This document shows positions 5,653-58,683 of a stretch of 64,000 bases of DNA, piece by piece. The stretch is from Candidatus Methylomirabilia bacterium. Lineage in GTDB: Bacteria > Methylomirabilota > Methylomirabilia > Rokubacteriales > CSP1-6. The stretch spans positions 5,698-69,697 of the forward strand of contig JBGQFW010000006.1 in the NCBI GenBank assembly GCA_041497115.1, written 5' to 3'. The position numbers were made by a program, and so were the translations under genes. The notes beneath the pieces were generated by a model, which did no database searches, had not been told where the DNA came from, and saw only the letters and a list, made by a program, of their open reading frames with translations. Each line of letters begins with the position of its first letter. Position 1 is the stretch's first letter.

Positions 5653-5663
5653 AATTGGCGACC

Positions 5664-9563: not shown

Positions 9564-10219
9564 ATGTCGACCGCCCTGTCGCCGACGCCCCGCGCGGCCG
9601 CCGCGCCGGGGCCGTTCCCGCTCCTCTACCAGGCGCTGCGCGCCCCGGTGGGCGCCGCGCTCGCGCGGTGGTTCGACTTGCGCGTCGAAGGACTCGAGCA
9701 CCTGCCCGCGGCCGGCCCGTACCTCATCGCCGCCAACCATCACAACTACCTCGACGGCGTGGTGCTGGCGGTGGCGGTGCCGGCGCCGATCGGCTTCCTC
9801 GTGATGCCGCGCGTGTGGCGGGCGACGCCGCTCCACCCGTGGCTGCATCGCCGCCTCGGCTCGATCCCGCTCAGCCTCGAGCGTCCCGACGTCGGCGCGC
9901 TCCGCGCCGCGCTGCGCGCGCTGGAGGCGGGACGCGTCGTCGGCATCTTCCCGGAGGGCCCGTTCAGCGTGCGCGGGCGGCTCGAGCACGGCCGGCCCGG
10001 CGTCGGGCTGCTGGCGCTGCGCGCCGACGTGCCGGTGGTGCCGGCCGGCATCCACGGCACCTACCAGGCGCTCCTGCACCGGCGCGGCTACATTCCGCGC
10101 CGCGTGCCGCTGGCCGTGCGCTTCGGGCCGGCGCGGCGGTTCGCCGGCGAGGGACGGGGCCGCGCGACGCGCTCGCGCATCACGCAGCGGATCATGGACG
10201 ACATCGCCGCCCTGCTCCC

Positions 10220-10223
<4 letters not shown>
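9564..10223 (+). CDS. 1-acyl-sn-glycerol-3-phosphate acyltransferase family protein
   Basis: 219 aa from the in-frame ATG at 9564. Acyltransferase motifs are present: NHHNYLDG (HX4D) and GIFPEG. Confidence 0.8.
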
Positions 10224-11610
<1,387 letters not shown>

Positions 11611-11614
<4 letters not shown>

Positions 11615-35206: not shown

Positions 35207-36401
35207 CCACCACGTCCTCGTAGATCTTCTTGGTCGCGCGCGCGCAGCGGTCCCACCGGAAGCGCGCCTCCACCCGCTCGCGGTTCAGCGCGCCGAGCTT
35301 CTGGCGCAGCGGCGCGTCGGCCAGCAGCTGGGCCAGCCGCCGCGCGGCGGTCTCGCGGTCGTCGGGATCGACGAGGACGCCGCCCTCGCCGTCCGCCAGC
35401 AGCTCGGGGAGCGAGCCGCGGTTGGAGGCGACGACGGGCAGCCCGCACGACATCGCCTCGGCCACGCTGAAGCCGAACCCCTCCAGCGACGACGGGAAGA
35501 ACAGCACGTCGGCGAGGTTGTAGTAGTCCACCTTCTCGCGCTCGGGGACATACCCGGTGAAGACCACGCGCCGCGCCTCCACCAGATCGGCGGCGCGGCG
35601 GCGGAGCGGCTCGAGCAGCGGGCCGGCGCCGCACACCAGCAGGCAGGCGTCCGGCCGCTCGGCGGCGACGAGGCGCCAGGTGTCGAGCAGGCCGAACAGG
35701 TTCTTGCGCGCCTTGAGCCCGCCGAGAAACAGCGCGACGGTCCGCCCCTCGAGCCCCCAGCGCCGGGCGAGCGGCGCCGGGCGCGGCCCCGGCGCGAAGC
35801 GCGCGTCCACGCCGTAGGGCACGACCGCGAACCGCTCGGCGGGCACGCCGAGCTCGGCCACCGCCTGGCGCACCGCGAACTCGCTGCCGACCACCACCCG
35901 CTCGACCGCGCGCATCACACGTCCCTCGATCAGCGGGTTGAGCCAGTGGGGATCGAGGTGGTGGTGGTGGGCGACGATCGGCACGTCGAGCCGGTAGCGG
36001 CGGCGGGCCAGCAGCGCGGCGGGGCCGATGTAGCGCAGCGAGTGGACGCGCAGGAAGTCGAACGGCGTCGCGTCCCACACGCGCTTGATCGCCGGCGGCA
36101 GCACGAGCGGCGCCACCGGCCACCGCAGCCCGCGGCCGATCGGCAGCCGGTGGATCGTCCAGTTGGCGACGCCGGCGGGGTAGCGCTTGTGGCGGGCCAG
36201 CAGGATGTCGAAGTGGACCCCGAGCGCGGCGACTCGCTGCAGGAGCTCGCGCTCGAACGTTTCCCCGCCCGACGTCGTCTCCGGATCGATGCCGCAGTGG
36301 GGGGAGCAGCCTCTCAGAGCGCGTATCCCAGGCGGCGCAGCACCGGCTCCTCGATGGCGGTGATCAGCGCCGCGTCCTCGGCGGCCAGCCGGGTGCGCCA
36401 C
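35172..36401 (-). CDS. glycosyltransferase family 4 (start codon uncertain)
   Basis: The GT4 core is clear (SGGETFEREL..., GGLKARKN, FPSSLEGFGFSVAEAMSCGLPVV). No ATG, GTG or TTG lies in frame between 36317 and about 36120. The nearest canonical start is GTG at 36401, an 88-nt overlap with the sulfotransferase. Confidence 0.75.
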   Translation of the reverse strand: MAHPAGRRGRGADHRHRGAGAAPPGIRALRGCSPHCGIDPETTSGGETFERELLQRVAALGVHFDILLARHKRYPAGVANWTIHRLPIGRGLRWPVAPLVLPPAIKRVWDATPFDFLRVHSLRYIGPAALLARRRYRLDVPIVAHHHHLDPHWLNPLIEGRVMRAVERVVVGSEFAVRQAVAELGVPAERFAVVPYGVDARFAPGPRPAPLARRWGLEGRTVALFLGGLKARKNLFGLLDTWRLVAAERPDACLLVCGAGPLLEPLRRRAADLVEARRVVFTGYVPEREKVDYYNLADVLFFPSSLEGFGFSVAEAMSCGLPVVASNRGSLPELLADGEGGVLVDPDDRETAARRLAQLLADAPLRQKLGALNRERVEARFRWDRCARATKKIYEDVVDEWRRRRAPAR

Positions 36402-37288
36402 TTCTCGTTGCGGTTCTCGAGCCGCTCCGGCACGCGGGCCATGATCTCGGGCGACACCGGCAGCCCGGCGAAGCTGAACAGCGTCTCCAGCGTGCCGCGC
36501 GGGTCCTGACAGAGCGTCTCGTAGCGCACGTGCAGCACCGGGAGCCGCAGCCGCTCCTCCACCTCGAACGCGTAGGCGAGCGCGTCGCGCCACTGCAGCG
36601 CATGCTGCTCGAGCGGGTTGTCGCGCAGGAGCTCGCGCCAGCGCGGGGGCTTGACGCCGGGAAACGGGTCCTCGCGCTCGCGCCACGGCTTGAAGCGGTC
36701 CTCCGGCTCGCCGGGCTGGGCGTGGCCCCAGATGAGCGAGTGCACCACCGCGCGGCCGTCGCGGATGATGTGCACGAACACCGCGTCGGGGAAGACGGCC
36801 TTGAGGAAATCCAGCCGCACCGTGTTGTTGGGGCTCTTGTTCAGCACGCGCGGCTTGCCCTCCCGCCACGCCTGGAACGCGAACCGCCGGTGCAGCCGCT
36901 CGATCTCGGCGGGCGTGGCGTCGGCGGCGGAGCGGACGTAGTCGCCGTTGGCGTAGTCGAAGTAGCCGTGCGGCTGGAGGATCGGGTTCGCCTCGGAGAG
37001 GTTGGCCAGGTCCGGGTGCGTCGCGGCGAGGTGCATGGAGATCGTCGTCCCCGAGTGCGGCATGCCGTACATCAGCACGGGCCGCTCGGCCCGGGCGTCG
37101 CGGCCGGCGGTGCGGCGCCAGAGCTCGTAGCGGAGCTCGTAGGCGAGCGTCTTGGCCGCGCGCGCCGGGAACTTCACGAACCAGCCGGCGGTGCCGAAGT
37201 CGCGAGTGAGCACGCGCGGGTCCACCTCGTTCAGCCGCGTGCGGTTGCCGAGCATCTCTTGCAGCCGGAGCTCCGTCATCCTCGCCAC
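36314..37288 (-). CDS. PAPS-dependent sulfotransferase
   Basis: 324 aa. It has a 5'-PSB-like motif MPHSGTT and a 3'-PB-like segment VHIIRDGRAVVHS. Confidence 0.8.
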   Translation of the reverse strand: MARMTELRLQEMLGNRTRLNEVDPRVLTRDFGTAGWFVKFPARAAKTLAYELRYELWRRTAGRDARAERPVLMYGMPHSGTTISMHLAATHPDLANLSEANPILQPHGYFDYANGDYVRSAADATPAEIERLHRRFAFQAWREGKPRVLNKSPNNTVRLDFLKAVFPDAVFVHIIRDGRAVVHSLIWGHAQPGEPEDRFKPWREREDPFPGVKPPRWRELLRDNPLEQHALQWRDALAYAFEVEERLRLPVLHVRYETLCQDPRGTLETLFSFAGLPVSPEIMARVPERLENRNEKWRTRLAAEDAALITAIEEPVLRRLGYAL

Positions 37289-37312: not shown

Positions 37313-38083
37313 CTAGCCGTGGGACGCCACGATCTCGATGTTCGGGTTCACGCCCGCCGCGCGGTAGTAGAGGCGCACCAGCGGCCACAGCGGGCCGCCC
37401 ACCCGGCGCGGCTCGCGATCCTCCAGCACGCGCAGGACGCGGCCCCCCGCCGCCGTGACGAGCGCCCGCGTCTCGCCGAGCGTGAGCGGGCGGAGCGTGT
37501 CCAGGAACGCGGCCGGGCGGCCGCGGGCGCTCACCCAGGCGCGCGCCGCCCACCGGGGCAGCCCGGGGATCCAGAAGATCTTGTAGTGGCCCTCCTGGCA
37601 GGAGAAGCGGTGCGGCGCGTGGAGGTAGAGCGCGCCGTGCGGCCGGAGCACCCGCAGCATCTCGCCGACCGCGCGGCCGGCGTCGGCGACGTGCTCGAGC
37701 GTCGAGTAGCAGTGCACGACGTCGAAGGCGCCGCGCGCGAACGGCAGCGCCTCGGCGACGGCCCGCGCCACGCGCGACGGTCCCAGCCGCCGTCCGGCGA
37801 TCGCCGTCGCCTCGCCGGAGGCGTCCACACCCCATACCGCGGCGCCGGCCGCGCCGGCGGCGGCGGCGAAGCCGCCGGTGCCGCAGCCGACGTCGAGCAG
37901 CCGCAGGCCGCGCAGCGGGCGACCCAGCGCTTGTTGCAGCCGCGCCACCCGTCCGCGCTCCTGGGCGCCGTCGTCGAGGCGCGCCGTCACGTGCTCGCGC
38001 CAGCCGGGAATGCCGAGCGTGTCGCGGTAGTAGCGCGTGTAGTACGCCTCCAGCGCCGCCCGCACGTCCCCCCCGCCCGTCAC
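37313..38083 (-). CDS. class I SAM-dependent methyltransferase
   Basis: GTG at 38083 overlaps the upstream stop (GTGA). 256 aa, with LLDVGCGTGG and LRVLRPHGALYLHAP. Confidence 0.8.
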   Translation of the reverse strand: MTGGGDVRAALEAYYTRYYRDTLGIPGWREHVTARLDDGAQERGRVARLQQALGRPLRGLRLLDVGCGTGGFAAAAGAAGAAVWGVDASGEATAIAGRRLGPSRVARAVAEALPFARGAFDVVHCYSTLEHVADAGRAVGEMLRVLRPHGALYLHAPHRFSCQEGHYKIFWIPGLPRWAARAWVSARGRPAAFLDTLRPLTLGETRALVTAAGGRVLRVLEDREPRRVGGPLWPLVRLYYRAAGVNPNIEIVASHG

Positions 38084-39117
38084 ACCGCCACCTCCCGCCC
38101 GAGCGCGGCCGCCGCCACGCGACGGGCGCCGCGGCCGTCCACCAGCCGCTGGCCGGCCCCGCTCATCGCGCGGCGGGTGGCGGCGTCTCCGAGCAGCGCG
38201 GCCAGCGCCTCGGCCAGCCGCACGGCGAAGTCGGCGGCGTCGGGCGACGGCAGCGCGCGCACGGCGCCGCCGGCCGCGAAGCCCGCGAGGTTCGCGCGCT
38301 GATTGTCGGCCACGGCGGTGGCGAGGGCGGGGCATCCCGCCCACGCCAGCTCGAGGAGCGTGAGACCGGCGGCGGTCACCGCCAGGTCGGCCTCGAGGAA
38401 CAACGAGCACACGTCCGGCGGGTCGTGGCGCACGCGCACCGTCCGGCGGCAGCGGCCGGCCGCCGTCGCCGCCGGCGCCGGATCGGCGAACGGCCCGACG
38501 AGCGCGTCGACGACGAAATCGCCGGGCGCGGCGTCGAGCGCGGCCAGCAGCGGGGCGAGCACCCCCGGCACCTCGCCGCCCCCGAGGGTGACCACGACGG
38601 CGGCGACGCGCTCGCGCAGCCGGCGCTCGGGCCGCGTCCAGCACTGCGGGCGCAGCGGCGCGTACGCCGGGCCGAGGAGGAACCGTGTGTCACCGTGACG
38701 CGAGCGGTGCGGCCGCTCGGCGGCGCCCGGCGCGGGATCGACCACCACGTGGCACGGCGACGGCGTCGCGGCCAGATCGTCGAACGCGACCAGTGTCAGG
38801 CCGGTCGCCCGCAACCGCTCCAGCGCGTCGTCGCTGGCGCGATAGCTGTCGATCACGAGGGTGGCGGCGCCCGTCGCGCCGGCGGCGGCGCACAGCCGCT
38901 CGAGCGCCGGCGCGTCCCACGCCGGCCAGCCGTCGATCGTCACCGCCGTCCGGCCGGCCGCCTCCACGCGCGTGCGGAAGGGGCCGGCGGCGGGCGCGGC
39001 CACCGACGCCAACGCGCCCTCCGCCTCGAGCGCGGCCGCCAGCGCGAGCGCGCGGCCGAGATGGCCCAGCCCGATGTCGGGGCCGCCGTCGGCGGCGAGG
39101 AGGACGCGCTCAGCCAT
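38080..39117 (-). CDS. pseG: PseG-like UDP-2,4-diacetamido-2,4,6-trideoxyhexose hydrolase
   Basis: 345 aa. It has ADGGPDIGLGHLGRALALA at the N-terminus and a GT-B-like C-terminal half. It sits adjacent to the GNAT and NeuB homologs. Confidence 0.7.
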   Translation of the reverse strand: MAERVLLAADGGPDIGLGHLGRALALAAALEAEGALASVAAPAAGPFRTRVEAAGRTAVTIDGWPAWDAPALERLCAAAGATGAATLVIDSYRASDDALERLRATGLTLVAFDDLAATPSPCHVVVDPAPGAAERPHRSRHGDTRFLLGPAYAPLRPQCWTRPERRLRERVAAVVVTLGGGEVPGVLAPLLAALDAAPGDFVVDALVGPFADPAPAATAAGRCRRTVRVRHDPPDVCSLFLEADLAVTAAGLTLLELAWAGCPALATAVADNQRANLAGFAAGGAVRALPSPDAADFAVRLAEALAALLGDAATRRAMSGAGQRLVDGRGARRVAAAALGREVAV

Positions 39118-39589
39118 CGCGCCAGGCCATCGCCGTCGCGGTCGCGCCGCCGACGCGGCGCTCGCCGGCCGCCACGAAGCCGGCGCGCTCGAAGGCCGTC
39201 CGCGACCGGGGGTTGTCGGCGCGCACGAGGGCGACCACCGGCGCGCGGCGGCCGGCGGCGCGGAACGCCGCGACCGCCGCGCGCAGCGCCGCCGGTCCGA
39301 GCCCGTGGCCGCGCGCCTCGGGGGCAAGCGCCACGCTCACGAGCGCCTCGCCGGCGGCGGCGTCGAAGCGCACGTAGCCGACGTCGGCGCCGCCCTCGGC
39401 GGCGATCATGTAGATCGGCGCCGTCTCGTCGGTGAGCCGCGCCGCCAGCCAGCGCTCGTGGCGGTCGAAGGCGATCGGCTCGGCGCTGAACGACACGCGG
39501 CGGACGGTCTCCTCGTTTCTCAGCTCCCAGAGCCGCCGCGCGTCCGCGGCGGTCGCCCGGCGCAGCGACACGGCGGACGCCTCACGCAT
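39110..39589 (-). CDS. GNAT N-acetyltransferase (PseH-like by position)
   Basis: 159 aa. It has the GNAT motif A region (RGHGLGPAAL) and ...NPRSRTAFERAGF. It lies between the pseG-like and neuB-like genes. Confidence 0.7.
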   Translation of the reverse strand: MREASAVSLRRATAADARRLWELRNEETVRRVSFSAEPIAFDRHERWLAARLTDETAPIYMIAAEGGADVGYVRFDAAAGEALVSVALAPEARGHGLGPAALRAAVAAFRAAGRRAPVVALVRADNPRSRTAFERAGFVAAGERRVGGATATAMAWRDG

Positions 39590-40631
39590 AGTCCGCCGCG
39601 GTCAGCGGCGCCTGCGCCGAGAGCGGACGGGCGGCGCGCCGCCCGACGACGCGGTCCCACGCGCTGGGCGGCAGGCCGGGCTCGAGAGCGCCGCAGCGGA
39701 GGATGACGAGGTTGTCGGGGCCGAGCGGCTCGCCCGAGGCCACGTCGCGGGCGACGAAGATCGCGCGGCGGGCGAAGCGCCGCAGCTCCTGCTCGACCGG
39801 CTGCACCGTCTTGTCGCCGCTGCCGAGCGCGCTCTCGACCTCGCGGACCTTGCGCACGAGCAGCGCCAGCTCGTCGGGCTCGACGGCGAACGCGTGGTCG
39901 GGGCCGGGCAGCCGGTTGCTCAGCGTGAAGTGCTTCTCGAGCAGGTTGGCCCCGAGCGCGACCGCCGCGAGCGGCCCCACCAGCGGATCGCGGGAGTGAT
40001 CGGACAGCCCCACCGGCACGCCGAACGCCGCCTTCATCGTCACGATCGCGCGCAGGTTGAGCGCGTCGAGCGGCGCCGGGTAGGCGGCGGTGCACTGCAT
40101 GAGCGCCAGCGGTCGTCCCGCCATCGCGGTCACCGTCTCGCCCACCTCGTCGAGGTCGGCGGTGCCGGTGGAGACGATCAGCGGCTTGCCGCGGGCGGCC
40201 GTGTAGCGCACGAGCGGCAGGTGCGTCATCTCATAGGAGGCGATCTTGTAGGCGCGCACGAGCGGGTCGAGCCGGTCCACCGACTCCTCGTCGAACGCGG
40301 AGGCCAGGAAGTCGATCGAGCGGGAGGCCGAGTGGTCGGCCAGCGCGGGCAGCCACTCGTACGGCATCTCCATGTCGGCGATGACGTCGTAGATCGACCG
40401 GTCGAGCTTGAGGTACTCGGACCGCCCGGCGCCGCGGGCGTAGAGCTTGCTCGCCCGGAAGAGCTGAAACTTGACGGCGTCGGCGCCCGCCTCGGCGGCG
40501 ACGTCGATGAGCCGCCGCGCCTGCTCGAGGCGGCCGTCGTGATTGGACCCCGCCTCGGCGATGACGTAGCACGGCTGCCCGTCGCCGATCCGCCGCCGCC
40601 CCACGCCGACCGTCGCCACCACAGCGCTCAC
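39582..40631 (-). CDS. pseI: NeuB-family nonulosonic acid synthase (pseudaminic acid synthase-like)
   Basis: GTG at 40631 overlaps the upstream stop (GTGA). 349 aa, with YVIAEAGSNHDG, DAVKFQ, YKIASYE, LSDHS and a C-terminal SAF/AFP-like domain. Confidence 0.85.
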   Translation of the reverse strand: MSAVVATVGVGRRRIGDGQPCYVIAEAGSNHDGRLEQARRLIDVAAEAGADAVKFQLFRASKLYARGAGRSEYLKLDRSIYDVIADMEMPYEWLPALADHSASRSIDFLASAFDEESVDRLDPLVRAYKIASYEMTHLPLVRYTAARGKPLIVSTGTADLDEVGETVTAMAGRPLALMQCTAAYPAPLDALNLRAIVTMKAAFGVPVGLSDHSRDPLVGPLAAVALGANLLEKHFTLSNRLPGPDHAFAVEPDELALLVRKVREVESALGSGDKTVQPVEQELRRFARRAIFVARDVASGEPLGPDNLVILRCGALEPGLPPSAWDRVVGRRAARPLSAQAPLTAADYA

Positions 40632-41917
40632 GGCTGGCGGAACACCGGCTCGACGACGCGGCCCTCCAGGCGGCGGGCGGCGTCCCCCGCCCGCACCGCG
40701 TCGGCGACGATGCCGAGCGCGGTGCCGTACACGCCGAGGGTCGTCTCGACGTCCCGATCGTCGTGGGAGAACGACACGTTCATCCCGCCGCCCAGCAGGA
40801 TGCCGCGCTTGAGGCACTCTTGTAGAAACAGCGTCTTGAGGATCGCCGGATCGCCGCCGCCGGGATCGGCGACCGTGATCACGGTGCGCGGCGGATAGCC
40901 GACGCACGCCAGGTGGCGCTCGAGCCCGGCCGCGCGGGCGAGCGCGTTGAACCCCTCCTGCAGCCGGCCGCCCTGCCGCCACAGGTGCGCGATCACCGGC
41001 TTGTCGCACATCTCGCGCACCGTCGCCAGCGCCGCCGCCAGCGAGACGGCCTCGCCGCCGAAGGTGAACGAGAAGAAGATCCGGTCGAAGACCTCCATGA
41101 GGTCGCGGCGCCCGACCACCGCCGCGATGGGAAAGCCGTTGCCGAGCGCCTTGCCGAAGCAGGCCAGGTCGGGAATCACGCCGAACAGCTCCTGGGCGCC
41201 GCCGAGCGCCAGGCGGAATCCGGTGACGATCTCATCGAACACCAGCAGCGCCCCCTGGCGATGGGCGAGGTCGCGCACGCCCTCGAGGAAGCCGGGGGCG
41301 GGCGGCACGATGCCGACCGGCTCCATGACGACGGCGGCCACGCGACCGGGATGCTCGGCGAACACGCGCTCGAGGCTGGCCAGGTCGTTGTAGGCGAACG
41401 TCACCGTGAGCTCGCGCACCGCCTTCGGGATGCCGTCGGCGCGCGTGGTCGTGGCGATGTACCAGTCCTGCCAGCCGTGGTAGCCGCAGCAGGCGATGAC
41501 GTCGCGGCCGGTGAGGGCGCGCGCGGCGCGCACCGCGCCGGCGGTCGCGTCGGAGCCGTTCTTGCCGAAGCGCACCATGTCGGCGCCGGGGATGAGCTCG
41601 GTCAACGCCTCCGCCACCTCGACCTCGAGTGGATGCGCCGTCGAGAACGACACGCCCTCGGCGGCCTGGCGGGTGACGGCCTCCACGACGGCCGGGTAGG
41701 CGTGGCCGAGGATCACCGCGCCGAGCGCCATCGGGTAGTCGATGTACTCGTTGTCGTCGACATCCCAGACGTGGCTGCCGCGGCCGCGGGCCAGGAACGC
41801 CGGTCCCACCCCCTCGACGTAGGCGTTCCGCCCCTTGCTGAACGTCTGCGTGGCCGACGGGATGACAGCCAGCGCCCGCTTGAGATACGCGCTCGACCGC
41901 TCGCCCTTGCGCGCCAT
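40628..41917 (-). CDS. class III aminotransferase (glutamate-1-semialdehyde 2,1-aminomutase-like)
   Basis: 429 aa, with FSKGRN, GSHVWDVDDNEYIDY, LVFDEIVTGFR and DLACFGKALGNGFP (PLP Lys). Confidence 0.85.
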   Translation of the reverse strand: MARKGERSSAYLKRALAVIPSATQTFSKGRNAYVEGVGPAFLARGRGSHVWDVDDNEYIDYPMALGAVILGHAYPAVVEAVTRQAAEGVSFSTAHPLEVEVAEALTELIPGADMVRFGKNGSDATAGAVRAARALTGRDVIACCGYHGWQDWYIATTTRADGIPKAVRELTVTFAYNDLASLERVFAEHPGRVAAVVMEPVGIVPPAPGFLEGVRDLAHRQGALLVFDEIVTGFRLALGGAQELFGVIPDLACFGKALGNGFPIAAVVGRRDLMEVFDRIFFSFTFGGEAVSLAAALATVREMCDKPVIAHLWRQGGRLQEGFNALARAAGLERHLACVGYPPRTVITVADPGGGDPAILKTLFLQECLKRGILLGGGMNVSFSHDDRDVETTLGVYGTALGIVADAVRAGDAARRLEGRVVEPVFRQP

Positions 41918-43173
41918 CACGCCTCCCCTGCCGCGCCCGCGCGCATCGTGCCGGCGACGAGGTCGAGGAGACGCGCCGACGCGCGCCCGTCGACCGCTCC
42001 CAGGAACTTCGCCAGGTACGCCTCCCGCGCCGCGCCGTCGACGGCCCAGTCGCCCAGGCGCATGCGCGGCAGCTGCTCGATCGTCTCGCCGACGCCCAGC
42101 GTGGCGGCCACGCCCTTGAACTGGAACAACATCCCCTCCTCGCGCCCGAACAGCCGCGGGTGCCACGGCTGGGTCGTGCCCATCTGGTCCAGCTCCGGCG
42201 CGATCGAGAGGCTGGGCACGCCGACCGCCACCGCCTCGAGGATCGCGAAGCTGTAGAAGTGGACGCACAGGCCGGCGACGGCGAGCAGCTCGACGATCGT
42301 CGCCGGGTACTGGGTGCGGTCGTACAGCACCTGGTCGGCGACGCGCCGGAGATAGCGCGGCACCGGATCCTTGGCCCGCGCCTTCACCACGAGCAGGGCG
42401 TCGTTGGCGTCGGCGAACTCGCGCACGGCGCGCGTCACGCCGACGTCGTCCCAGCCACGATCCACCAGCCGGACGAGGTCGCCGGCGCTGCTCCGACGCA
42501 GGCGCCACCGTCGCCACGCGCGGTTGCCGCCCGCGTACGCCCAGCGGCTCCACGGCGTCGCTGGATTCGAGTGGAAGGGATAGGGCAGGTAGAGGACGAC
42601 CGGGCGCGCCGCCGGGATCCCGAGCCGCCGCCGGATCTCCTCGGGATCGACCGCGCCGATCTGGTCGAGCTCCGGCATCCCGACCGCGGTCGAGCGCGCG
42701 CGGATCTCCCCCTCGCGCGCGTCGCCGGCGGTCGTGAGCCCGCGGTCGCGGAAGTTGTCGAGCGCGAAGTCCACCCACCAGTCGCTGTGGACGGCCACGC
42801 CGGCCGCCCGCGTGAAGTCCTCGGGGACGAGCTTTCGCCAGAGGTCCCCGGTGAACTGGAGGATCGTCCACGGCACCGCGGCGGCCGCGCGGCCGTCCGG
42901 CTTCTTCTCGATCGCGACGACCGCGTCCACGCCCGCCGCCGCCACCGCATCGAGCAGCGCGGCGCGGCCGGCGTACATGACGATCCGCGGCGTCCCCGCG
43001 CGGAAGCGGGGGGCCCGGTCGGCGGCGGGGAACTCGTAGCCCTTGTGGCCGCGTCGCGCCTGCGCGCCGTCGTGCAGGGCGACGACCTCCATTCCGCGGG
43101 CGAGCGCCGCCTCGACCACCGGCCCCAGCAGCCGGTAGTAGTTGTTCCGGGTGATGACGACGCCGAGCCTCAT
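41917..43173 (-). CDS. hypothetical protein, two-Rossmann-domain (GT-B-like) appearance
   Basis: 418 aa and coding-like, with tight coupling at both ends. No diagnostic motif was recognised. The C-terminal half (LLVVKARAKDP...VHFYSFAILEAVAVGVPSLSI) resembles capsule/teichoic-type transferase folds. Confidence 0.55.
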   Translation of the reverse strand: MRLGVVITRNNYYRLLGPVVEAALARGMEVVALHDGAQARRGHKGYEFPAADRAPRFRAGTPRIVMYAGRAALLDAVAAAGVDAVVAIEKKPDGRAAAAVPWTILQFTGDLWRKLVPEDFTRAAGVAVHSDWWVDFALDNFRDRGLTTAGDAREGEIRARSTAVGMPELDQIGAVDPEEIRRRLGIPAARPVVLYLPYPFHSNPATPWSRWAYAGGNRAWRRWRLRRSSAGDLVRLVDRGWDDVGVTRAVREFADANDALLVVKARAKDPVPRYLRRVADQVLYDRTQYPATIVELLAVAGLCVHFYSFAILEAVAVGVPSLSIAPELDQMGTTQPWHPRLFGREEGMLFQFKGVAATLGVGETIEQLPRMRLGDWAVDGAAREAYLAKFLGAVDGRASARLLDLVAGTMRAGAAGEA

Positions 43174-44522
43174 GCCGCCGCCGCCATGCGCACGAGCCCC
43201 TCGCGCGCGAAGCGGTCCACCCAGCCGCGGACCTGCTCGAACGGCAGCCGCACGAACGCGGCGATCTCGCCCACCGAGTTCCGGCCGTCGATGCACGCCA
43301 TGATCAGGTCCATCGCGGCGTTGAGCTCCGGCTGCTCGCGCCAGTCCACCCACAGCCCGTACTGCGACAGGAAGATCGGCCCCGTGTAGAGCGGCACCGG
43401 CACCACGTCGTCCGCCTGCGCCGGCCGCGCCGGCAGGCGGTCGCGCAGCCGCAGCCCTCCGCGCTCGCGCGCGCAGCCCGCCGGCTCCAGGCTCTCCAGG
43501 CCGTCCACGATGTCCCGCACGATCTCGAACCCCTCGGTGATGCCGGGCCAGTCCAGCCGCGCGGGAATGTCGCGGTGGGAATGGTAGTCCTCGAACGGGC
43601 CGCGGTTGAGCGCGATCGAGGGGATCCAGAGATTCGCGCTCGACGTCACCGCCTCGTCGTTCATGATGCCGTCCTCGCGGAAGGGCAGCGCCGTGAAGTC
43701 CGAGCCGAACCGCTTGGTGAGGACCTGGGTCGCCACCTCGTCGATCAGCGAGTCGCCGCGCAGCGATCTCTGCAGCCGCACCCGCCCCGGCCGCCCCCAG
43801 AACTCGGTGTAGACGCTGTACACGATGTCGTCCGCCAGCTCCGGGTGGTTGGCCAGGAACGCGATGGTGCCGATCGTCTCGGGCAGGAACGTGAACACGT
43901 ACGTGAAGAACCGCGGCGTCGCCTTCAGGTGCGCGTAGAGCGCGTGGGCGACCGCCGTCCCGCTCAGGCTGTCGTTGCACTGGTAGGGGTGGCAGATGTC
44001 GCTGCTGACGAGGATCGTCTGCGGCGAGCGGCCGGGCAGCCGGACGTAGCCGACCCGGAAGACGTCGTCGTAGTAACGGGCGTCCACCCTCACGTGATAC
44101 TCGGCGTCGCGATCGAGCCGCGCGACCAGATCGAAGGGCAGGTTGAATCCCCAGTCCAGCCGTCCGTAGTAGCGGAAGTTCCACACGAGCAGCGCCGGCC
44201 GCGTCGCGTCCGCGTAGACGTGCCGCCGCAGCTCGTCGTAGGAGACGACCGCGTCGACCGGCAGCGAGCCGCTCGACACGCACAGCGGCTCGGTGGCCGT
44301 CGAGACGATCTCCCGCCCGCCGCACGCGATCGAGGCCGACCGGAGGTCCCACTTGCGTGGCAGCCGCCAGGTCCAGGCGGCGCTGCCGGTGGGATAGCCG
44401 TCGATCACGAGGTCGGGAACGAACTCCGCCTTGATGATGTCCAGGGCCCGGTCGAGGTCGGGGCTGCAGATCGACCGGTTGAGCGGATGCAGTCGCTCGA
44501 TGAAGCGCCGCATGTCGCTCAT
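43170..44522 (-). CDS. DUF4910/aminopeptidase-like domain protein with C-terminal winged helix
   Basis: 450 aa. It shows M28-like remnants (CHPYQCNDSLSG, FLPETIGTIAFL, HSHRD) and a C-terminal wHTH-like region (GRNSVGEIAAFVRLPFEQVRGWVDRFAREGLV). Confidence 0.7.
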   Translation of the reverse strand: MSDMRRFIERLHPLNRSICSPDLDRALDIIKAEFVPDLVIDGYPTGSAAWTWRLPRKWDLRSASIACGGREIVSTATEPLCVSSGSLPVDAVVSYDELRRHVYADATRPALLVWNFRYYGRLDWGFNLPFDLVARLDRDAEYHVRVDARYYDDVFRVGYVRLPGRSPQTILVSSDICHPYQCNDSLSGTAVAHALYAHLKATPRFFTYVFTFLPETIGTIAFLANHPELADDIVYSVYTEFWGRPGRVRLQRSLRGDSLIDEVATQVLTKRFGSDFTALPFREDGIMNDEAVTSSANLWIPSIALNRGPFEDYHSHRDIPARLDWPGITEGFEIVRDIVDGLESLEPAGCARERGGLRLRDRLPARPAQADDVVPVPLYTGPIFLSQYGLWVDWREQPELNAAMDLIMACIDGRNSVGEIAAFVRLPFEQVRGWVDRFAREGLVRMAAAA

Positions 44523-45286
44523 CGGTTGCCCTTCCCGGAGCCCGCGAACTTCTCGTTGCGCGTGAGGCCGGCGTTGAGCGTCGCCAGCTCGGGATGCGCG
44601 CGCAGGAGCGCGAGCACCTCGGCCATTCCGAACGGGCGCGTCCCGTCCGGGCTCAGCGCGGCGTAGACCGCCCGCACGAACTCGAGATCGCCGGCGGTAT
44701 CGACGGTCCAGCGCAGCGCGGAGAGGTCCTCGGCGTGGCGCACGTTGACGAGGCCGAACCGCTCGGGTCGGTCCCAGATGTACGGCGTCACGTGCTCGCG
44801 GTCGGCGGGATGGCGCGCCTCGCGCCACGCCGCCTCCAGCGCCTCGCGCGAGAACACCTCGGTGTCGAGGCCGTCGGGATAGGTCGGCGGGTGCACGTTG
44901 CTGACGTAGCCGACGCGTCCCCCGTGGGCGACGAACTCGGCGACGACGCGCGCCGAGACCGCCGGATCGAGGAGCGGGCAGTCCGGCGTGATCCGCACGA
45001 TGGCGTCGGCGGGATGGGCGCGCACCGCCGCCTGGAAGCGGTCGAGGACGTCGTCCTCGCTGCCCCGCACCCACGGGAGCCCGGCCGCCACCGCGAACCG
45101 CACGACCGGCTCGTCGCGCGGCTGGTCGGTGGTGGCGATCACGATCTCGTCGAGGCCGGGGATCGCGCGCGCCCGCGCGACGACGTGCGCCAGCATGGGA
45201 CGGCCGGCCACCTCCGCCAGCGCCTTGCCGGGCAGGCGGCTCGAGCCGAGGCGGACCTGCACGACGGCCACGCAGCGCAGCGCCAT
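44519..45286 (-). CDS. SpsF/FlmC-type cytidylyltransferase-domain protein
   Basis: 255 aa. VAVVQVRLGSSRLPGKAL is the acylneuraminate cytidylyltransferase-family N-terminus. Confidence 0.8.
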   Translation of the reverse strand: MALRCVAVVQVRLGSSRLPGKALAEVAGRPMLAHVVARARAIPGLDEIVIATTDQPRDEPVVRFAVAAGLPWVRGSEDDVLDRFQAAVRAHPADAIVRITPDCPLLDPAVSARVVAEFVAHGGRVGYVSNVHPPTYPDGLDTEVFSREALEAAWREARHPADREHVTPYIWDRPERFGLVNVRHAEDLSALRWTVDTAGDLEFVRAVYAALSPDGTRPFGMAEVLALLRAHPELATLNAGLTRNEKFAGSGKGNR

Positions 45287-46272
45287 CAGACGGTGATCCA
45301 GCGGCGCCCGGCCGCCGAGGCCTTGGCCGCTTCCACCAGCCGGAGGGCGGCGAGCGCCTCGCCCGCCCCGATCGTCGGCTGCTCGCGCCCCTCGAGGCAC
45401 GCGACGAGGTGCCGCATCTCCTCCACGAACATCTCGTTGTGGTCGAAGTCGATCGGCTCGCGAAACCCCTCCCAGCGGTCGCGCTCCTCGCCGAAGACCG
45501 TCACCCGCCCCTCGATGTAGTCGCACACGATGACGCCCCGCTCGCCGATGACCTCGCAGTCGCGCCGGTAGGAGCGCTGCAGGTAGTCCAGGTGGAGCTG
45601 GGCGATCGGGCCGCCGGCGAACCGCAGCGTCACCTCCGCGAAGTCCTCCACGTCGATCGCCAGCTCGGAGAGGCGGCCGGCCGTGCAGAAGACGTCGGTG
45701 ACGGGGCCGAACATCCAGCGCAGATAGTCGAACTCGTGGATGGCGTCGAGGAGGATCCCGCCCCCGTGGGCGGCGTGGGCGCGATACGTCTGGCGGTAGT
45801 CCGCGCCCGGCTTCCAGAACGGCAGGTGGAAGCCGCACTGGGCCCGGACCGCGAGGACGCGGCCGATCCGCCCCTCGTCCACCAGCGCCTTGACGCGCCG
45901 GAGCGGGCGGAAGAAGCGCAGGTTGGCGCCGACCAGCACGCGGCAGCCGCGCGCGTCGGCCTCCGCGAGCAGGTCGGCGACGCCCTCGGAGCGCGCCGCG
46001 ATCGGCTTCTCGACGAACAGGTGGGTGGCCCAGCCGAGCGTGAGGCGGGCCAGCTCGAGATGGGACGACGGCGGCGTGCAGATCACCACCGCGTCCGGCT
46101 TGTGCGCGCCGGCGCCGGCGAGGGCCGGCAGGGGCTCGAGGCCGAGGCCGGCCGCCGCCCCCGCCAGCCGCTCGCCGTCGGCGTCGAAGCCGAGGACGTC
46201 GTGGCCGAGCGCGCGCAGGTTGCGCGCGTGGCGCTGGCCGATCGACCCGAGCCCGACGACCAGGAACCGCAT
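45286..46272 (-). CDS. Gfo/Idh/MocA-family NAD(P)-dependent oxidoreductase
   Basis: 328 aa, with MRFLVVGLGSIGQRH, VVICTPPSSH and HLFVEKP. Confidence 0.85.
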   Translation of the reverse strand: MRFLVVGLGSIGQRHARNLRALGHDVLGFDADGERLAGAAAGLGLEPLPALAGAGAHKPDAVVICTPPSSHLELARLTLGWATHLFVEKPIAARSEGVADLLAEADARGCRVLVGANLRFFRPLRRVKALVDEGRIGRVLAVRAQCGFHLPFWKPGADYRQTYRAHAAHGGGILLDAIHEFDYLRWMFGPVTDVFCTAGRLSELAIDVEDFAEVTLRFAGGPIAQLHLDYLQRSYRRDCEVIGERGVIVCDYIEGRVTVFGEERDRWEGFREPIDFDHNEMFVEEMRHLVACLEGREQPTIGAGEALAALRLVEAAKASAAGRRWITV

Positions 46273-46283
46273 GCGGGCCGGCG

Positions 46284-47978
46284 CTACACGTCGGCGCGGG
46301 TGGCCCCGCGCACGCCGCGCCGGGCGGTCTGGCTGTCGCCGGTGTGGGGATGGCGCACCGTGTTCTGCCCGCCCAGCTCGCTGACCGCGCCCCACGACAG
46401 CTCGATGATCTCCTCGTCGGGAAGGTCGCTGAAGTTCGTGCGCACCTCCTCGCCCTGCTCGCCCAGCCGCAGGAAGTACTGCTCGATGATGTCCTCGTCG
46501 GCCGGCCCCTTCTCGCCGGTGACCGCCTTCCGGATGAGCCCCTTGTCGAGGGCCAGCTGCCAGAACGACGTGCCCGGGTACGCCGTCGTGAAGAAGAACA
46601 CCTCCGGCTTCAGGTTCACCTTGCGGCAGAACTCGACGGTCTCGCGCACGGTGTCGGCGGTCTCGCCGGGCGAGCCGATCATGAACGAGCAGTCGGCGTA
46701 GCCGAGCACCCGCTGCGTCTCCAGGATGGCGATCTCCATCTTCTCGAGCGTCTGCCCGCTCTTGTCGATGTTCTTCAAGATCGTCGGGCTGGCCGACTCC
46801 ACGCCGTAGCCGGCCTGGCGCATCCCGACCTCGTAGCCGAGCTCGAGCATGTGCGGGCGTCCCTCGCGCCGCGCGCGCAGCACGTCGTCGGCCACGATGT
46901 TGGTCCGGCAGGTTCCGCCCCACATCACCTCGAAGCCGGCCGTCCGCTTGCGCTCGCGGAGCTCGGTGAAGAGCTCCAGCGCCCAGCGGTAGTCGGTCAT
47001 CAGGAGGTCGTCCAGGAAGTGGATGTACACCGCGCCGTAGCGCTCCCTGATGTACTGCATCTCGTCCACGACCTCCCGCGGGCTCCGCAGCCGGTAGGTC
47101 TTGCCGAGATACGCCGCATAGCAGTAGTCGCACGCGCGCGACGCGTACGGACAGCCGCGCGAGGCGATCATGGACACCGAGTACTGCCCGGTCTGGACCG
47201 GCGCGCCGTCGACCCACTTCGTCTGCCAGTTCAGGTGGCCGACGGGATTCAGCTTGTAGACCTCGTCCTCGGCCCACCGCGAGCGCAGCGGCCAGGGCAG
47301 CCCGTCGAGCCCCGCCTCGCGCGACTGCACGGAGGCGCGCAGCCCGTTGTCGCGCACCGTCCACTCCCCCGGCCGGAGGACGTGCCGGTACGCCACCCCC
47401 TTCACCCCTTCGAGCGTCGCCCCCGCCTCGAGCCGGTGGAGCAGCTCCGAGACGGTCACCTCGCCCTCTTCCTGCACGACCGCGTCGACCGGCAGCCGCT
47501 GCACCATGAACGCCGGCATCGAGGAGGCGATGCCGCCCCCGAGCACGATCGGCACGTCGGGATGCACCCGCCGGCAGATCGTCGCGATCCGCTTGATCCA
47601 CGCGTACTGGGTGATGATCCCGCCCAGCCCGATCACGTCGGGGCGCGCGCTCTGGAGCTTCTCGACGATGCGGGTCTCGACCCACTTCACGAACGCCTCG
47701 GGCGAATCTTTCACGGGCTGGCGGCGCTCGGCGTTGAGGTCGAGCACGTCGACGGTGTGGCCGTCCATCGCGACGACCGCCCCGACGTACCCCTGCCCGA
47801 TCGGCATGATGTTCGGATACGACCACTCGCGGATCGGCGCGTTGATCAGGAGCACGCGCAGCCCCCCGTCGCGGGGCGCGAAGCGCGCCTCGCCGGCCTG
47901 GGTGGTGATGCGCGGCGCCGCCGAGTCCGCGATCCGCCCGTGCGCGTCGAACCGCTCGTAGAAGCGCGATGCCGTCAC
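46284..47978 (-). CDS. B12-binding-domain radical SAM enzyme with non-canonical cysteine spacing
   Basis: 564 aa. It has an N-terminal B12-binding-like domain (VLLINAP..., IGLGGIITQ). The cluster motif reads ASRGCPYASRACDYC (CX6CX2C). Confidence 0.85.
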   Translation of the reverse strand: MTASRFYERFDAHGRIADSAAPRITTQAGEARFAPRDGGLRVLLINAPIREWSYPNIMPIGQGYVGAVVAMDGHTVDVLDLNAERRQPVKDSPEAFVKWVETRIVEKLQSARPDVIGLGGIITQYAWIKRIATICRRVHPDVPIVLGGGIASSMPAFMVQRLPVDAVVQEEGEVTVSELLHRLEAGATLEGVKGVAYRHVLRPGEWTVRDNGLRASVQSREAGLDGLPWPLRSRWAEDEVYKLNPVGHLNWQTKWVDGAPVQTGQYSVSMIASRGCPYASRACDYCYAAYLGKTYRLRSPREVVDEMQYIRERYGAVYIHFLDDLLMTDYRWALELFTELRERKRTAGFEVMWGGTCRTNIVADDVLRARREGRPHMLELGYEVGMRQAGYGVESASPTILKNIDKSGQTLEKMEIAILETQRVLGYADCSFMIGSPGETADTVRETVEFCRKVNLKPEVFFFTTAYPGTSFWQLALDKGLIRKAVTGEKGPADEDIIEQYFLRLGEQGEEVRTNFSDLPDEEIIELSWGAVSELGGQNTVRHPHTGDSQTARRGVRGATRADV

Positions 47979-47982
47979 CTCG

Positions 47983-48240
47983 TCACCTCCCGATCCGTTT
48001 CTCGAGATAGGCCGCGATCTGGTTGACCGACTTCAGGCCGTCGACGTCCTCGTCGGGGATGGCCACGTCGTACGTCTCCTCCAGCGCGAGCAGCATCGCC
48101 GAGTGGTCGAGGGAGTCGAGGCCCAGGTCGAACAGGGACTGGTCGTGATCTCCCGGGCTCTCGACCGTGGGCGCGGCGTCCTTCACGGCCTTCAGGACGG
48201 CGGCGACGAGATCCTCGTCGGGCATGGCTGGCTCCCTCAC
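47983..48240 (-). CDS. acyl carrier protein
   Basis: 80-85 aa (GTG at 48240 in a GTGA overlap, or ATG at 48225). The phosphopantetheine site is LFDLGLDSLDHSAML. Confidence 0.8.
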   Translation of the reverse strand: MREPAMPDEDLVAAVLKAVKDAAPTVESPGDHDQSLFDLGLDSLDHSAMLLALEETYDVAIPDEDVDGLKSVNQIAAYLEKRIGR

Positions 48241-57004: not shown

Positions 57005-58683
57005 GACCGCGGCCTCACCTGCCAGAGCGTCTGGAGCCGTTCACCGAAGAGGTAGATCGGCTCCTGGGCCTCCTCCCAGTAGGTCAGCACCGGGACCAGA
57101 TCGTAGCGCTGCCGCAGCCCGGCCGCGAACGCCTCGAAGTCGCGCGTCGTGAACCGCTCGCCCGGCCGGCGCACGAGGGCGTGGTTGATGCCGAACAGCG
57201 TGTAGGGGCCGGGCACGAGGTTGTAGACGAACACCCGCCGGCCGAGCACGAGCTGGGTCGCGATGGTCTCGCGCACGACGCCGAAGCCGTCCTCCTTCGA
57301 CTTCTCGCGGAACACGTCCTTGACGTTAACGTGATGCTCGTCGTTGCGCGCCAGCACCGCGTCCAGCCCGGACTCGGCGGAGACGAAGAAGTCGTCGGCC
57401 CGGAACTCGCTGCGCGCGCGCGCGGCCAGCGCCTGCTGCTGGCGCCCGTAGCGATAGTAGGGCAGCATCGCGCCCCAGGCGTTGCCGGCAACGACCACCA
57501 CCAGCAGCGCGGCGACGAGGCCGACCTGGCGCCGGCACGCGCGTGGCCCGACGTCGGGCGCGAGCCGGGTCACGATCGGTCCGAGCAGCAGGAGGACCAG
57601 CAGCGGGGGCAGAGTCAGCAGGTGGTACTTGGCGGCGCCAGGCCAGAACCACGAGTTGAGGACGACCTTGCCGGCGAGCCACCACGCTCCGCACAGCACC
57701 AGCGCCAGCAGGCCGTGCTCGAGGACACGCCGACGCGCCCACCAGGCCTCCGCCGCGAGCGCGAGCAGCAGGCCACAGCCGACCACGCCGAGGCTCACGA
57801 GCGCGACCACCGTGCCGTGCGCGAAGAGCGCCGGCTCGCGCAGCGCGTCGCTCAGCACCTGCACGCCGAAGAGCAGCGCGCTGAGCTGGCCCTTGAGCAG
57901 CTTGAGCGGCGTGACGAGCACCCCCGTCGTCTCGTACACTTCGTGCGGTCGCCAGACTTGGCGCACGTTGATGATGTACCACGCGCCGAGCTCGTCCAGA
58001 CCCCGCGCGCCCTTCAGCGCCACGCCGACCAGGATCGACAGCGCGACGGTAGTCGCGACGCCGACGCCGACGTAGACGAGCGCGGCGCGCAGGGCGCGGC
58101 GCGGCGGCTGGCCGACGAAGCCGGCCGCCACCGCGCCGGCGCCGAACAAGACGGCGCTTCGCAGCAGCAGACCCTCCGCAGCGTTGAAGAACGCGAGGAC
58201 GCCGGCGAAGCGCCAGTCGTAGGGCCGTCCGCTCGTCCGCCGGCGCACGAACAGGTAGAACAGCCACAGCACGGCGCCGAGCGCCAGGTGGTGGGTGTCG
58301 GCGTTCACGTAGAACCAGGAGGCGAACGAGGTGGCCAGCAGCAGCGCGCCCAGCACGCCCAGCACGGGACCCGCGCCGAGCAGCACGAGCGTCTGGCCGA
58401 AGGCGGCGATGCCGCTGGCGGCCGCCAGCGCGTTCGCCGTCTGCACGACCGCGAGCGGCGTGAAGGGTCCGCCGGGGCCGGCCAGCGCGCGGATGAGCCA
58501 GTAAAAGATCGCGGCGGTGAGCGGCCAGTCGGCGATGAAGACGTCCGGCCGGTCGCCGCGGGCGAACTCGGGCAGGAGCCACTGCCCGTTGCCAGTGGGG
58601 ATCGCGGCGAACGTCAGCTCGTAAAGCAGGAACACGCCGGCGAAGACGGCCAGCCCCACCCGCCAGTCGGTGCGGGGCGGCAT
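57001..58683 (-). CDS. large polytopic membrane protein with a C-terminal soluble domain (unassigned; GT-C-like candidate)
   Basis: 560 aa, with more than 10 TM helices and a ~170-aa tail (FRADDFFVSAESGLD...). It lies immediately downstream of a short GT2. Confidence 0.6.
   Translation of the reverse strand: MPPRTDWRVGLAVFAGVFLLYELTFAAIPTGNGQWLLPEFARGDRPDVFIADWPLTAAIFYWLIRALAGPGGPFTPLAVVQTANALAAASGIAAFGQTLVLLGAGPVLGVLGALLLATSFASWFYVNADTHHLALGAVLWLFYLFVRRRTSGRPYDWRFAGVLAFFNAAEGLLLRSAVLFGAGAVAAGFVGQPPRRALRAALVYVGVGVATTVALSILVGVALKGARGLDELGAWYIINVRQVWRPHEVYETTGVLVTPLKLLKGQLSALLFGVQVLSDALREPALFAHGTVVALVSLGVVGCGLLLALAAEAWWARRRVLEHGLLALVLCGAWWLAGKVVLNSWFWPGAAKYHLLTLPPLLVLLLLGPIVTRLAPDVGPRACRRQVGLVAALLVVVVAGNAWGAMLPYYRYGRQQQALAARARSEFRADDFFVSAESGLDAVLARNDEHHVNVKDVFREKSKEDGFGVVRETIATQLVLGRRVFVYNLVPGPYTLFGINHALVRRPGERFTTRDFEAFAAGLRQRYDLVPVLTYWEEAQEPIYLFGERLQTLWQVRPRS

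Follow-up and report, generated by a model that had tools for sequence, protein, structure and literature searches.

A conserved oxidoreductase, SpsF-like cytidylyltransferase and class-III aminotransferase module in a nonulosonic acid operon of a Candidatus Methylomirabilia bacterium

We analysed a 64,000-nucleotide stretch of DNA (hereafter the window) from a Candidatus Methylomirabilia bacterium, and in it a gene cluster for a nonulosonic acid, a nine-carbon surface sugar akin to sialic acid, of the pseudaminic acid (Pse) or legionaminic acid (Leg) type. The window lies on contig C6 of a 4.58-Mb assembly (217 contigs, 91.6% complete), has a guanine plus cytosine content of ~73%, and its genes have their closest relatives in metagenome-assembled genomes of Candidatus Rokubacteria/Methylomirabilota. 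Frame analysis based on third codon positions (GC3) revealed a single unbroken series of minus-strand genes from ~33 kb to 60 kb, in which consecutive genes overlap by 1–8 nt in an operon-like manner. The segment of interest (38080–46272) is bounded exactly by the stop codon of a PseG-like gene and the start codon of a gene for a Gfo/Idh/MocA oxidoreductase (hereafter Gfo), and the eight co-directional genes that the initial annotation had named there were all recovered with profile matches and exact coordinates (Table 1); the E-values of the gene identifications (1e-15 to 1e-140) exclude chance. PseB and PseC, which the same annotation had placed upstream at 50563 and 55811, both scored above their equivalog cut-offs, and the homologies of NeuB, GNAT, PseG-like, CTP_transf_3, PseB and PseC proteins support its assignment of the segment to a nonulosonic acid sub-cluster. 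Overall, the window is a real, non-unique instance of a widespread Pse/Leg pathway variant, in which Gfo, an SpsF-like cytidylyltransferase and a class-III pyridoxal phosphate (PLP) aminotransferase accompany the core genes and for which we hypothesize a specific chemistry below.

The initial annotation had further held that the six canonical steps of Pse biosynthesis are covered, which proved right for the first two and too generous for the rest. When scored against the TIGRFAM models, only PseB (467.9 bits on TIGR03589, cut-off 407.75) and PseC (441.5 bits on TIGR03588, cut-off 423.5) reached the Pse equivalog cut-offs, while the proteins at the PseH, PseG, PseI and PseF positions fell short. 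The GNAT protein, with 27 bits on the PseH model (TIGR03585, cut-off 93.1), is a generic GNAT occupying the PseH position, and it adjoins NeuB in nearly all related loci. The PseG-like protein (115.4 bits on TIGR03590, cut-off 153.55) aligned over model positions 2–276 of 280, i.e., it is a homologue below the equivalog cut-off, and its gene is kept in related loci. NeuB obtained 266.8 bits on the PseI model (TIGR03586, cut-off 340.25) and scored higher on NeuB_NnaB, with 316 bits against a cut-off of 399.65; the cytidylyltransferase obtained only 26.4 bits on the PseF model (TIGR03584, cut-off 205.7).

Comparison of the window NeuB with solved structures ranked SpsE (1VLI, 272.9 bits) above PseI (8H2C, 173.8 bits) and Neisseria meningitidis NeuB (144.9 bits). 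The same relationship was found in a maximum-likelihood tree of structure references and the NeuB homologues of related loci, which resolves SpsE, PseI and NeuB types and includes no LegI reference. In this tree the window NeuB shared a clade with Bacillus subtilis SpsE (support 99/98) and fell outside the separate canonical PseI clade (8H2C and loci L034 and L036; support 100/100), so that the phylogeny proposed as a check did not return the PseI placement and instead pointed to SpsE, whose pathway yields legionaminic acid. The B. subtilis Sps enzymes are Pse-like by homology, yet they yield legionaminic acid from uridine diphosphate (UDP)-linked precursors (PMC7439481).

The activating enzyme had been called SpsF-type rather than a typical PseF, and it is indeed non-PseF and SpsF-like: its CTP_transf_3 match (95.3 bits) stands against the low PseF score given above. 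The best solved relative is 6OEW, described as 'cytidylyltransferase' (114 bits), and the GSSRLPGK motif is intact. Homologues in which this domain is fused to the aminotransferase carry the name 'SpsF' in JGI. Since the only other CTP_transf_3 protein of the genome is a clear KdsB, homology leaves the SpsF-like enzyme as the genome's only candidate cytidine monophosphate (CMP)-nonulosonate synthetase. Such an activator has precedent in B. subtilis SpsF and Caulobacter FlmC and is not itself new; FlmC, a cytidylyltransferase that is not homologous to PseF, acts in a Pse pathway that has been reconstituted (PMC7591256).

Related loci (labelled L) were gathered through the family of the 418-aa protein of the segment and then through a search with the aminotransferase, and were compared in a tblastn matrix with the window's proteins. 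Gfo was found within 1–2 genes of the orthologous aminotransferase in all 18 loci compared (18/18), and a CTP_transf_3 gene adjoined, or was fused to, the aminotransferase in 17 of the 18, which span many phyla. Among the best 120 aminotransferase homologues (63–70% identity), 71 were single ~685-aa CTP_transf_3::Aminotran_3 polypeptides, and the window's SpsF-like enzyme is 46–51% identical to their N-terminal domain. In 18 loci, Gfo homologues (40–56% identity) neighbour the genes for cytidylyltransferase and aminotransferase. Conservation within the module is highest for the aminotransferase, with 64–67% identity across phyla compared to 40–51% for Gfo and SpsF. The presence and linkage of the genes, the occurrence of the fusion and the integrity of the motifs are direct observations.

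The rokubacterial loci share one architecture, which comprises PAPS (3′-phosphoadenosine-5′-phosphosulfate) synthase, MarR, ATP-binding cassette (ABC) transporter, PseB, PseC, PseG, the 418-aa gene, NeuB and GNAT, sometimes a radical S-adenosylmethionine (SAM) gene, then Gfo, SpsF and aminotransferase, followed by methyltransferase and GT4 genes. In these loci Gfo, SpsF and aminotransferase are contiguous and in the same order throughout, and the sole difference of the window is that the DUF4910 and 418-aa genes separate its cytidylyltransferase gene from that of the aminotransferase. Outside this phylum, six contexts (including Thermodesulfobacteriota, Binatia, Tectomicrobia and Dehalococcoidia) contain PseB, DegT, Gfo, SpsF (fused or not) and aminotransferase, then NeuB/GNAT/PseG in either order, and some of them are flagellin islands, as shown by neighbouring genes for flagellin, FliD and FliS, or Maf. 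The module occurs with three NeuB clades, namely PseI (L034, L036), SpsE-type (window, L035, L039, L041) and a third clade (L004, L016, L020), and in L034 and L036 the surrounding PseB, PseC, PseG and PseI all exceed trusted cut-offs. Because it accompanies bona fide PseB/C/G/I sets, SpsE-type NeuB and the third NeuB clade alike, the module, judged by gene context, is a portable add-on to the core pathway. Within the window's phylum it is patchy (10 of 151 genomes), which suits an accessory tailoring unit.

These comparisons divide the four genes that the initial annotation had grouped as additions to the textbook pathway. Gfo and the aminotransferase form a conserved addition, while the 418-aa protein (transferase-like) and the DUF4910 protein stand apart, and homologues of both were absent from module loci L034–L041 by tblastn with the window proteins. 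The 418-aa protein was accordingly rejected as an obligate partner of the trio.

Two of the module loci deserve separate description. In L035, PseB, Gfo, an SpsF::aminotransferase fusion, an SpsE-type NeuB (66% identical to that of the window), a formyltransferase and a PseG-like gene occur together, and the class-III enzyme there might also perform the C4 amination. The Binatia flagellin island L036 (regions 5372–6040 and 10001–12061) encodes bona fide PseB/C/G/I, an SpsF::aminotransferase fusion and a second, stand-alone SpsF-like paralogue with 36% identity, and its two cytidylyltransferase copies may have split roles.

Table 1 Genes of the segment and of the surrounding operon, with their window coordinates
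Feature	Coordinates	Strand	Evidence or remark
Gfo/Idh/MocA NAD(P) oxidoreductase, 328 aa	45286..46272	-	PF22725 93.7 bits, PF01408 61.9, PF02894
SpsF-like CTP_transf_3 cytidylyltransferase, 255 aa	44519..45286	-	PF02348 95.3 bits
DUF4910/DUF2172 metallopeptidase-like protein with C-terminal helix-turn-helix (HTH), 450 aa	43170..44522	-	PF16254 141.1 bits
418-aa GT-B-fold, TagB/TagF-like protein	41917..43173	-	no family match of its own; predicted structure
Class-III (glutamate-1-semialdehyde (GSA)-aminomutase-like) PLP aminotransferase, 430 aa	40628..41920	-	PF00202 175 bits
NeuB with SAF domain, SpsE-type nonulosonate synthase, 349 aa	39582..40631	-	PF03102 257 bits
GNAT N-acetyltransferase, PseH/SpsD position, 159 aa	39110..39589	-	PF13302 58 bits
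PseG-like nucleotide-sugar hydrolase, 345 aa	38080..39117	-	TIGR03590 115.4 bits
PseB, UDP-GlcNAc 4,6-dehydratase (inverting type by model), 333 aa	50563..51564	-	TIGR03589 467.9 bits
PseC, DegT-type aminotransferase, 397 aa	55811..57004	-	TIGR03588 441.5 bits
Acyl carrier protein (ACP), 85 aa, DSLD motif	47983..48240	-	acyl module
AAC(3)-like N-acyltransferase	48237..49046	-	PF02522 107 bits
KASIII	49039..49959	-	PF08545 and PF08541
B12-binding radical SAM enzyme	46284..47978	-	operon neighbour
PAPS synthase (fused ATP-sulfurylase/adenosine phosphosulfate (APS) kinase)	54042..55745	-	same operon
Sulfotransferase	36314..37288	-	same operon
560-aa protein between GT2 gene and pseC	57001..58683	-	no Pfam or NCBIfam match

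With 462.4 bits on PRK06209 (cut-off 486) and 276.2 bits on the hemL model TIGR00713 (cut-off 527.3), the aminotransferase falls outside HemL, and its DEIVTGFR and FGK(257)ALGNG motifs are intact. A true HemL role was rejected on the grounds that the protein reaches about half the hemL cut-off, that its relatives are fused to cytidylyltransferases and that the genome has further HemL-like paralogues. At least five such class-III paralogues were detected (contigs C61, C59, C98, C44 and C72; 209–245 bits on PRK06209), and the one on C61 contains an in-frame TGA. Gfo has its GxGxxG, EKP and D-x3-H motifs, and its closest solved structure is 3EZY. By analogy to published systems, Gfo is the proposed dehydrogenase that makes a keto intermediate on the (CMP-)nonulosonate, and the class-III enzyme is the proposed aminating enzyme of that intermediate.

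The 418-aa protein gave no family match by itself against Pfam and NCBIfam profiles, none of the 547 representatives of its family (at 50% identity) is annotated, and a family profile found nothing meaningful among PDB sequences. An AlphaFold model built with the family alignment reached a pLDDT of 92.3 (36 from the single sequence) and displayed a GT-B fold with two Rossmann domains. Foldseek returned TagF (3L7M, TMq 0.57) as the best TM-score, with UDP-GlcNAc 2-epimerases similar and MshA also among the matches. On PF04464 the protein scored 11.6 bits, below the cut-off of 22.1, and 26 of 37 family members match weakly (best E-value 1.3e-5). TagB-domain proteins of Tannerella forsythia are genetically supported transferases of a Pse/Leg derivative (PMC5420450). 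Given the GT-B fold, the TagB/F-like signal and this precedent, we read the modelled 418-aa protein as probably a CMP-sugar transferase and not a tailoring enzyme.

The 450-aa protein is a member of DUF4910 (141.1 bits on PF16254, cut-off 26.6) and matches the family's solved representative CA_C2195 (3K9T) over residues 5–343 with 120.4 bits, sharing with it the peptidase-like plus C-terminal HTH architecture. The DUF4910 family was linked by gene neighbourhood to spsE/spsF-type clusters in 2014, when a transacylase or amidase role was suggested (PMC4000134). The window fits that neighbourhood but is alone among related loci in carrying the gene, as tblastn found no DUF4910 homologue in the 28 related loci examined. 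On this distribution, DUF4910 is a local, accessory addition outside the conserved module.

Having established the gene content, we then considered what the operon may synthesize, with core roles assigned by homology and tailoring roles drawn from conserved synteny, gene fusion and published analogues. PseB and PseC would convert the UDP-linked precursor to UDP-4-amino-6-deoxy-hexosamine, the GNAT would acetylate it, the PseG-like enzyme would remove UDP, the SpsE-type NeuB would condense the product with phosphoenolpyruvate (PEP), and the SpsF-like enzyme would attach CMP. Gfo would then form a ketone by oxidizing one of the secondary hydroxyls of the (CMP-)nonulosonate, most likely at C8, which is favoured because it adjoins the C9 methyl, and the class-III aminotransferase would convert the ketone to an amine. 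The predicted product is a 5,7,8-triamino-3,5,7,8,9-pentadeoxy-nonulosonate, which the 418-aa GT-B protein would pass to an acceptor. In this joint reading, the segment is the later part of an operon that makes and transfers a CMP-activated 5,7-diamino nonulosonic acid of Pse/Leg type, and the module tailors that sugar as described; taken as a whole, the reading is, in our estimate, possible and only slightly short of evenly balanced. By analogy, the probable contribution of the module is a third amino group on the sugar. The initial annotation had proposed an additional keto or amino change from the extra oxidoreductase and aminotransferase; the pair is indeed conserved and an extra amine is the most plausible change, but the arrangement is not peculiar to this genome.

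The timing of such an amination can be argued from the carbon skeleton. In the hexose, C2 and C4 already bear nitrogen and the C3 hydroxyl becomes the ring oxygen of the nonulosonate, and it takes the NeuB step to free the C5 and C1 hydroxyls (which become C8 and C4). Any additional amination must accordingly come late, and amination at the hexose stage was rejected on these grounds. Late amination also fits the linkage of the module to the cytidylyltransferase, the last enzyme. Oxidation at C8 would yield a methyl ketone, and substrates of this shape are typical of class-III (omega) transaminases.

An 8-amino sugar of this kind exists in nature, as the O-polysaccharide of Tenacibaculum (Flexibacter) maritimum holds 5-acetamido-7-(3-hydroxybutyramido)-8-amino-3,5,7,8,9-pentadeoxy-nonulosonic acid (PMC3210612). 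Its genes are not known, and neuB, class-III aminotransferase and Gfo genes are not listed in the text of the T. maritimum O-antigen paper (PMC9796276). We tentatively propose, while expecting that it may well prove wrong, that the module is the missing route to CMP-activated 5,7,8-triamino-3,5,7,8,9-pentadeoxy-nonulosonic acids, a sugar type so far recorded from this one O-antigen. Given that the module, often in fused form, is present in flagellin islands and surface-glycan operons across many phyla, triamino nonulosonates would then be a common, overlooked class of surface sugars in bacteria.

Several points weigh against this interpretation. What the module acts on, whether it does so at C8 rather than C4 and on the CMP-sugar or the free sugar, and what it makes are all inferred by analogy. 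Because NeuB reaches neither the PseI nor the NeuB cut-off and clusters with SpsE of a legionaminic acid pathway, 'Pse' is not secure as a product name, and Pse and Leg stereochemistry cannot be read from sequence. The nearest relatives of the aminotransferase are true GSA aminomutases (218 bits) and not known sugar aminotransferases. Roles may also differ between contexts, because L040 has Gfo and the aminotransferase without a CTP_transf_3 gene nearby and L035 is without a DegT gene within 10 kb. Regarding the 418-aa protein, a NeuC/LegG-like hydrolysing 2-epimerase would fit the modelled fold as well, and Foldseek does not separate the two; B. subtilis SpsB, likewise TagB-like, is dispensable for Leg transfer (PMC7439481). 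Lastly, no functional assignment for the combination of HemL-like, SpsF and Gfo proteins turned up in our literature searches.

Three other explanations were weighed against the late third amine. It is unlikely, in our view, that the product is an ordinary di-N-acyl Pse/Leg and that Gfo and the class-III enzyme make or modify an N-acyl side chain (amino-acyl or amino-hydroxy-acyl) or another sugar of the glycan. GSA aminomutases, which the aminotransferase most resembles, act on small amino-aldehyde acids, the window encodes an acyl module (ACP, KASIII and AAC(3)-like proteins), and unusual N-acyl groups of nonulosonates (e.g., 3-hydroxybutyryl) are well known; however, most aminotransferase homologues are fused to a cytidylyltransferase, the module always lies between pseC and neuB/pseG, even in minimal cassettes without an acyl module or other sugar genes (L036, L040), and there is structural precedent for a Gfo/Idh/MocA enzyme acting directly on a CMP-nonulosonate. 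Equally directed at the role of the class-III enzyme, an improbable proposal has it act at the hexose stage (either as an aminomutase or for C4 amination, in place of or in addition to the usual enzyme) with Gfo as ketoreductase or epimerase, giving a stereoisomer (Leg-, 8-epi- or acinetaminic acid-like) and not a triamino sugar. The DegT-free L035, with its PseB, Gfo, fusion and NeuB, would suit it, as would the SpsE-type NeuB, given that Leg is what the Pse-like enzymes of the B. subtilis Sps pathway produce, and the participation of a Gfo-type enzyme, ElaA (described below), in epimerisation. Against this, the window has a bona fide PseC and PseC is found in 16 of 18 contexts, epimerisation requires a reductase partner and not a PLP aminotransferase, and the hexose C3 must remain a hydroxyl for pyranose closure while C2 and C4 already carry nitrogen.

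The remaining alternative, which we regard as quite improbable, is that the trio makes a separate CDP/CMP-activated (CDP, cytidine diphosphate) amino-alcohol or amino-acid phosphate that the TagF-like 418-aa protein adds as a phosphodiester, in the style of teichoic acids. That the genome has no other non-KdsB CTP_transf_3 protein for nonulosonate activation argues against it, as do the presence of the module without a 418-aa homologue in L034–L041 and the lack of any kinase or phosphate-forming step conserved with the module, although TagB/F enzymes take CDP-alcohol donors and the 418-aa family weakly matches PF04464, L036 has a second SpsF-like paralogue, and L040 is without a nearby cytidylyltransferase. 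The late addition of a third amino group is our preferred reading.

The rest of the operon encodes a MarR_EPS regulator, an ABC exporter, methyltransferases, GT2 and GT4 glycosyltransferases and a polysaccharide deacetylase, along with several genes that may further modify the product. Between pseB and the B12-radical SAM gene (47983–50570, minus strand), the acyl module and an unassigned 204-aa protein form a probable acyl-ACP N-acylation unit; from homology, its ACP, AAC(3)-like and KASIII proteins are candidates for attaching an acyl group to an amino group of the sugar. In L041, a homologue of the AAC(3)-like protein (51% identity) stands beside the module. Of all genes in the cluster, that of the B12-radical SAM enzyme is the best conserved, with 81–83% identity to rokubacterial loci (L017, L018, L019 and L028) in which it lies between GNAT and Gfo, and C- or N-methylation of the sugar or acyl group is a possible function. 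Rokubacterial loci (L023, L026) have a PAPS synthase in syntenic position with 79% identity to that of the window, whose occurrence in the same operon as a sulfotransferase points to a sulfated glycan.

Nonulosonate genes were also found outside the window. Contig C215 (L002, 2.1 kb) has the end of a DegT aminotransferase gene, a PseG-like gene (whose 144 bits come closer to the cut-off than the score of the window copy) and the start of a second NeuB, which groups in the third clade with L004, L016 and L020, whose loci bear the Gfo/SpsF/aminotransferase module. The remainder of this cassette is absent from the assembly, and the set may represent a second cluster broken in assembly, strain heterogeneity or contamination. 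In L003 (1843–4978) and L030 (6741–16900), two or three divergent NeuB paralogues occur side by side in the cluster, a hint that a single glycan may contain several nonulosonates.

As components of flagella, capsules, S-layers and lipopolysaccharides, nonulosonic acids influence immune recognition, phage adsorption and motility, and their diversity is usually ascribed to stereoisomers and N-acyl groups. A late third amino group, if confirmed, would constitute a new biosynthetic branch of the nonulosonate pathway, offer gene candidates for the orphan T. maritimum 8-amino sugar, make the cytidylyltransferase::aminotransferase fusion a sequence marker for such sugars in genomes and metagenomes, and account for unassigned genes drawn in Aeromonas flagellin islands. 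The 418-aa family would add a candidate class to the very small number of nonulosonate transferases known so far.

To our knowledge, the sps gene set of B. subtilis and the flm gene set of Caulobacter are without a Gfo oxidoreductase, a class-III aminotransferase or DUF4910. In 14 control genomes, these two species included, no match reached the PRK06209 cut-off, a result of little weight given that the window's own protein also falls below it. The two systems (SpsC/D/E/F/G/M, PMC7439481; FlmA/B/H/D/NeuB/FlmC, PMC7591256) resemble the window in their UDP-linked precursors, PseG-like hydrolase, GNAT, NeuB and non-PseF cytidylyltransferase. In T. forsythia, the GT-B/TagB-like proteins Tanf_01245 and TFUB4_00887 are needed for adding the Pse/Leg derivative (PMC5420450), and the 418-aa protein is like them by fold and by its weak PF04464 match. 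A Clostridium flagellar Pse paper and a Leptospira paper held no relevant gene information.

Partial parallels to the module, with no function ascribed to them, appear in two papers. A table for the Legionella serogroup 6/12 O-antigen lists consecutive entries for GNAT, PseG, a 'glutamate-1-semialdehyde aminomutase' and a cytidylyltransferase (PMC3694923), and the maps of the Aeromonas group I polar-flagellin islands draw pseB, pseC, an aldo/keto reductase, pseF, a class-III aminotransferase, pseG and pseI (PMC7874193). By these published maps, an oxidoreductase and a class-III aminotransferase flank the cytidylyltransferase in Aeromonas as in our module, and because of this analogous layout the arrangement is not peculiar to the window's genome. 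The Aeromonas islands differ in that the cytidylyltransferase is pseF and the partner is an aldo/keto reductase and not Gfo, the latter being a further point against the proposed chemistry.

Two tailoring systems of Acinetobacter baumannii follow a similar logic. In prophages of this species, EpaA (a CTP_transf_3::aldo-keto-reductase fusion) and EpaB (a short-chain dehydrogenase/reductase, SDR) convert Pse to 8-epi-Pse (PMC12053666). In EpaA, an N-terminal CTP_transf_3 domain is fused to the enzyme that completes the C8 reaction while the dehydrogenase is separate, as in the SpsF::aminotransferase fusions; Epa differs in having an aldo-keto reductase as its fused partner and an SDR as its dehydrogenase and in yielding a product with a hydroxyl at C8, and in the window the corresponding domains are separate genes. 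In the KL49 locus, ElaB (a CTP-transferase), ElaA (a Gfo/Idh/MocA enzyme with a proposed role in C8-hydroxyl oxidation of CMP-Leg5,7Ac2) and ElaC (an SDR) lead to 8-epi-Leg (PMC13656337). This is likewise a three-gene tailoring set in a nonulosonate locus whose third enzyme acts on the 8-keto intermediate, and ElaA and the window Gfo share 3EZY as nearest solved structure. Ela differs in its PseF/NeuA-like cytidylyltransferase, as against the SpsF-like enzyme of the window, and in its third enzyme, an SDR reductase in place of the class-III aminotransferase, so that amination and not epimerisation is predicted for the window. As in both systems, the dehydrogenase of our module is coupled to a CTP_transf_3 enzyme (Gfo adjoins the SpsF-like gene in the window, and the two are coupled in 17 of 18 related loci), but the second half of the reaction falls to a PLP class-III aminotransferase and not to an NAD(P)H reductase, and this replacement leads to the predicted 8-amino-8-deoxy product. 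By analogy, the window module may work like the Ela and Epa systems while not being a member of either.

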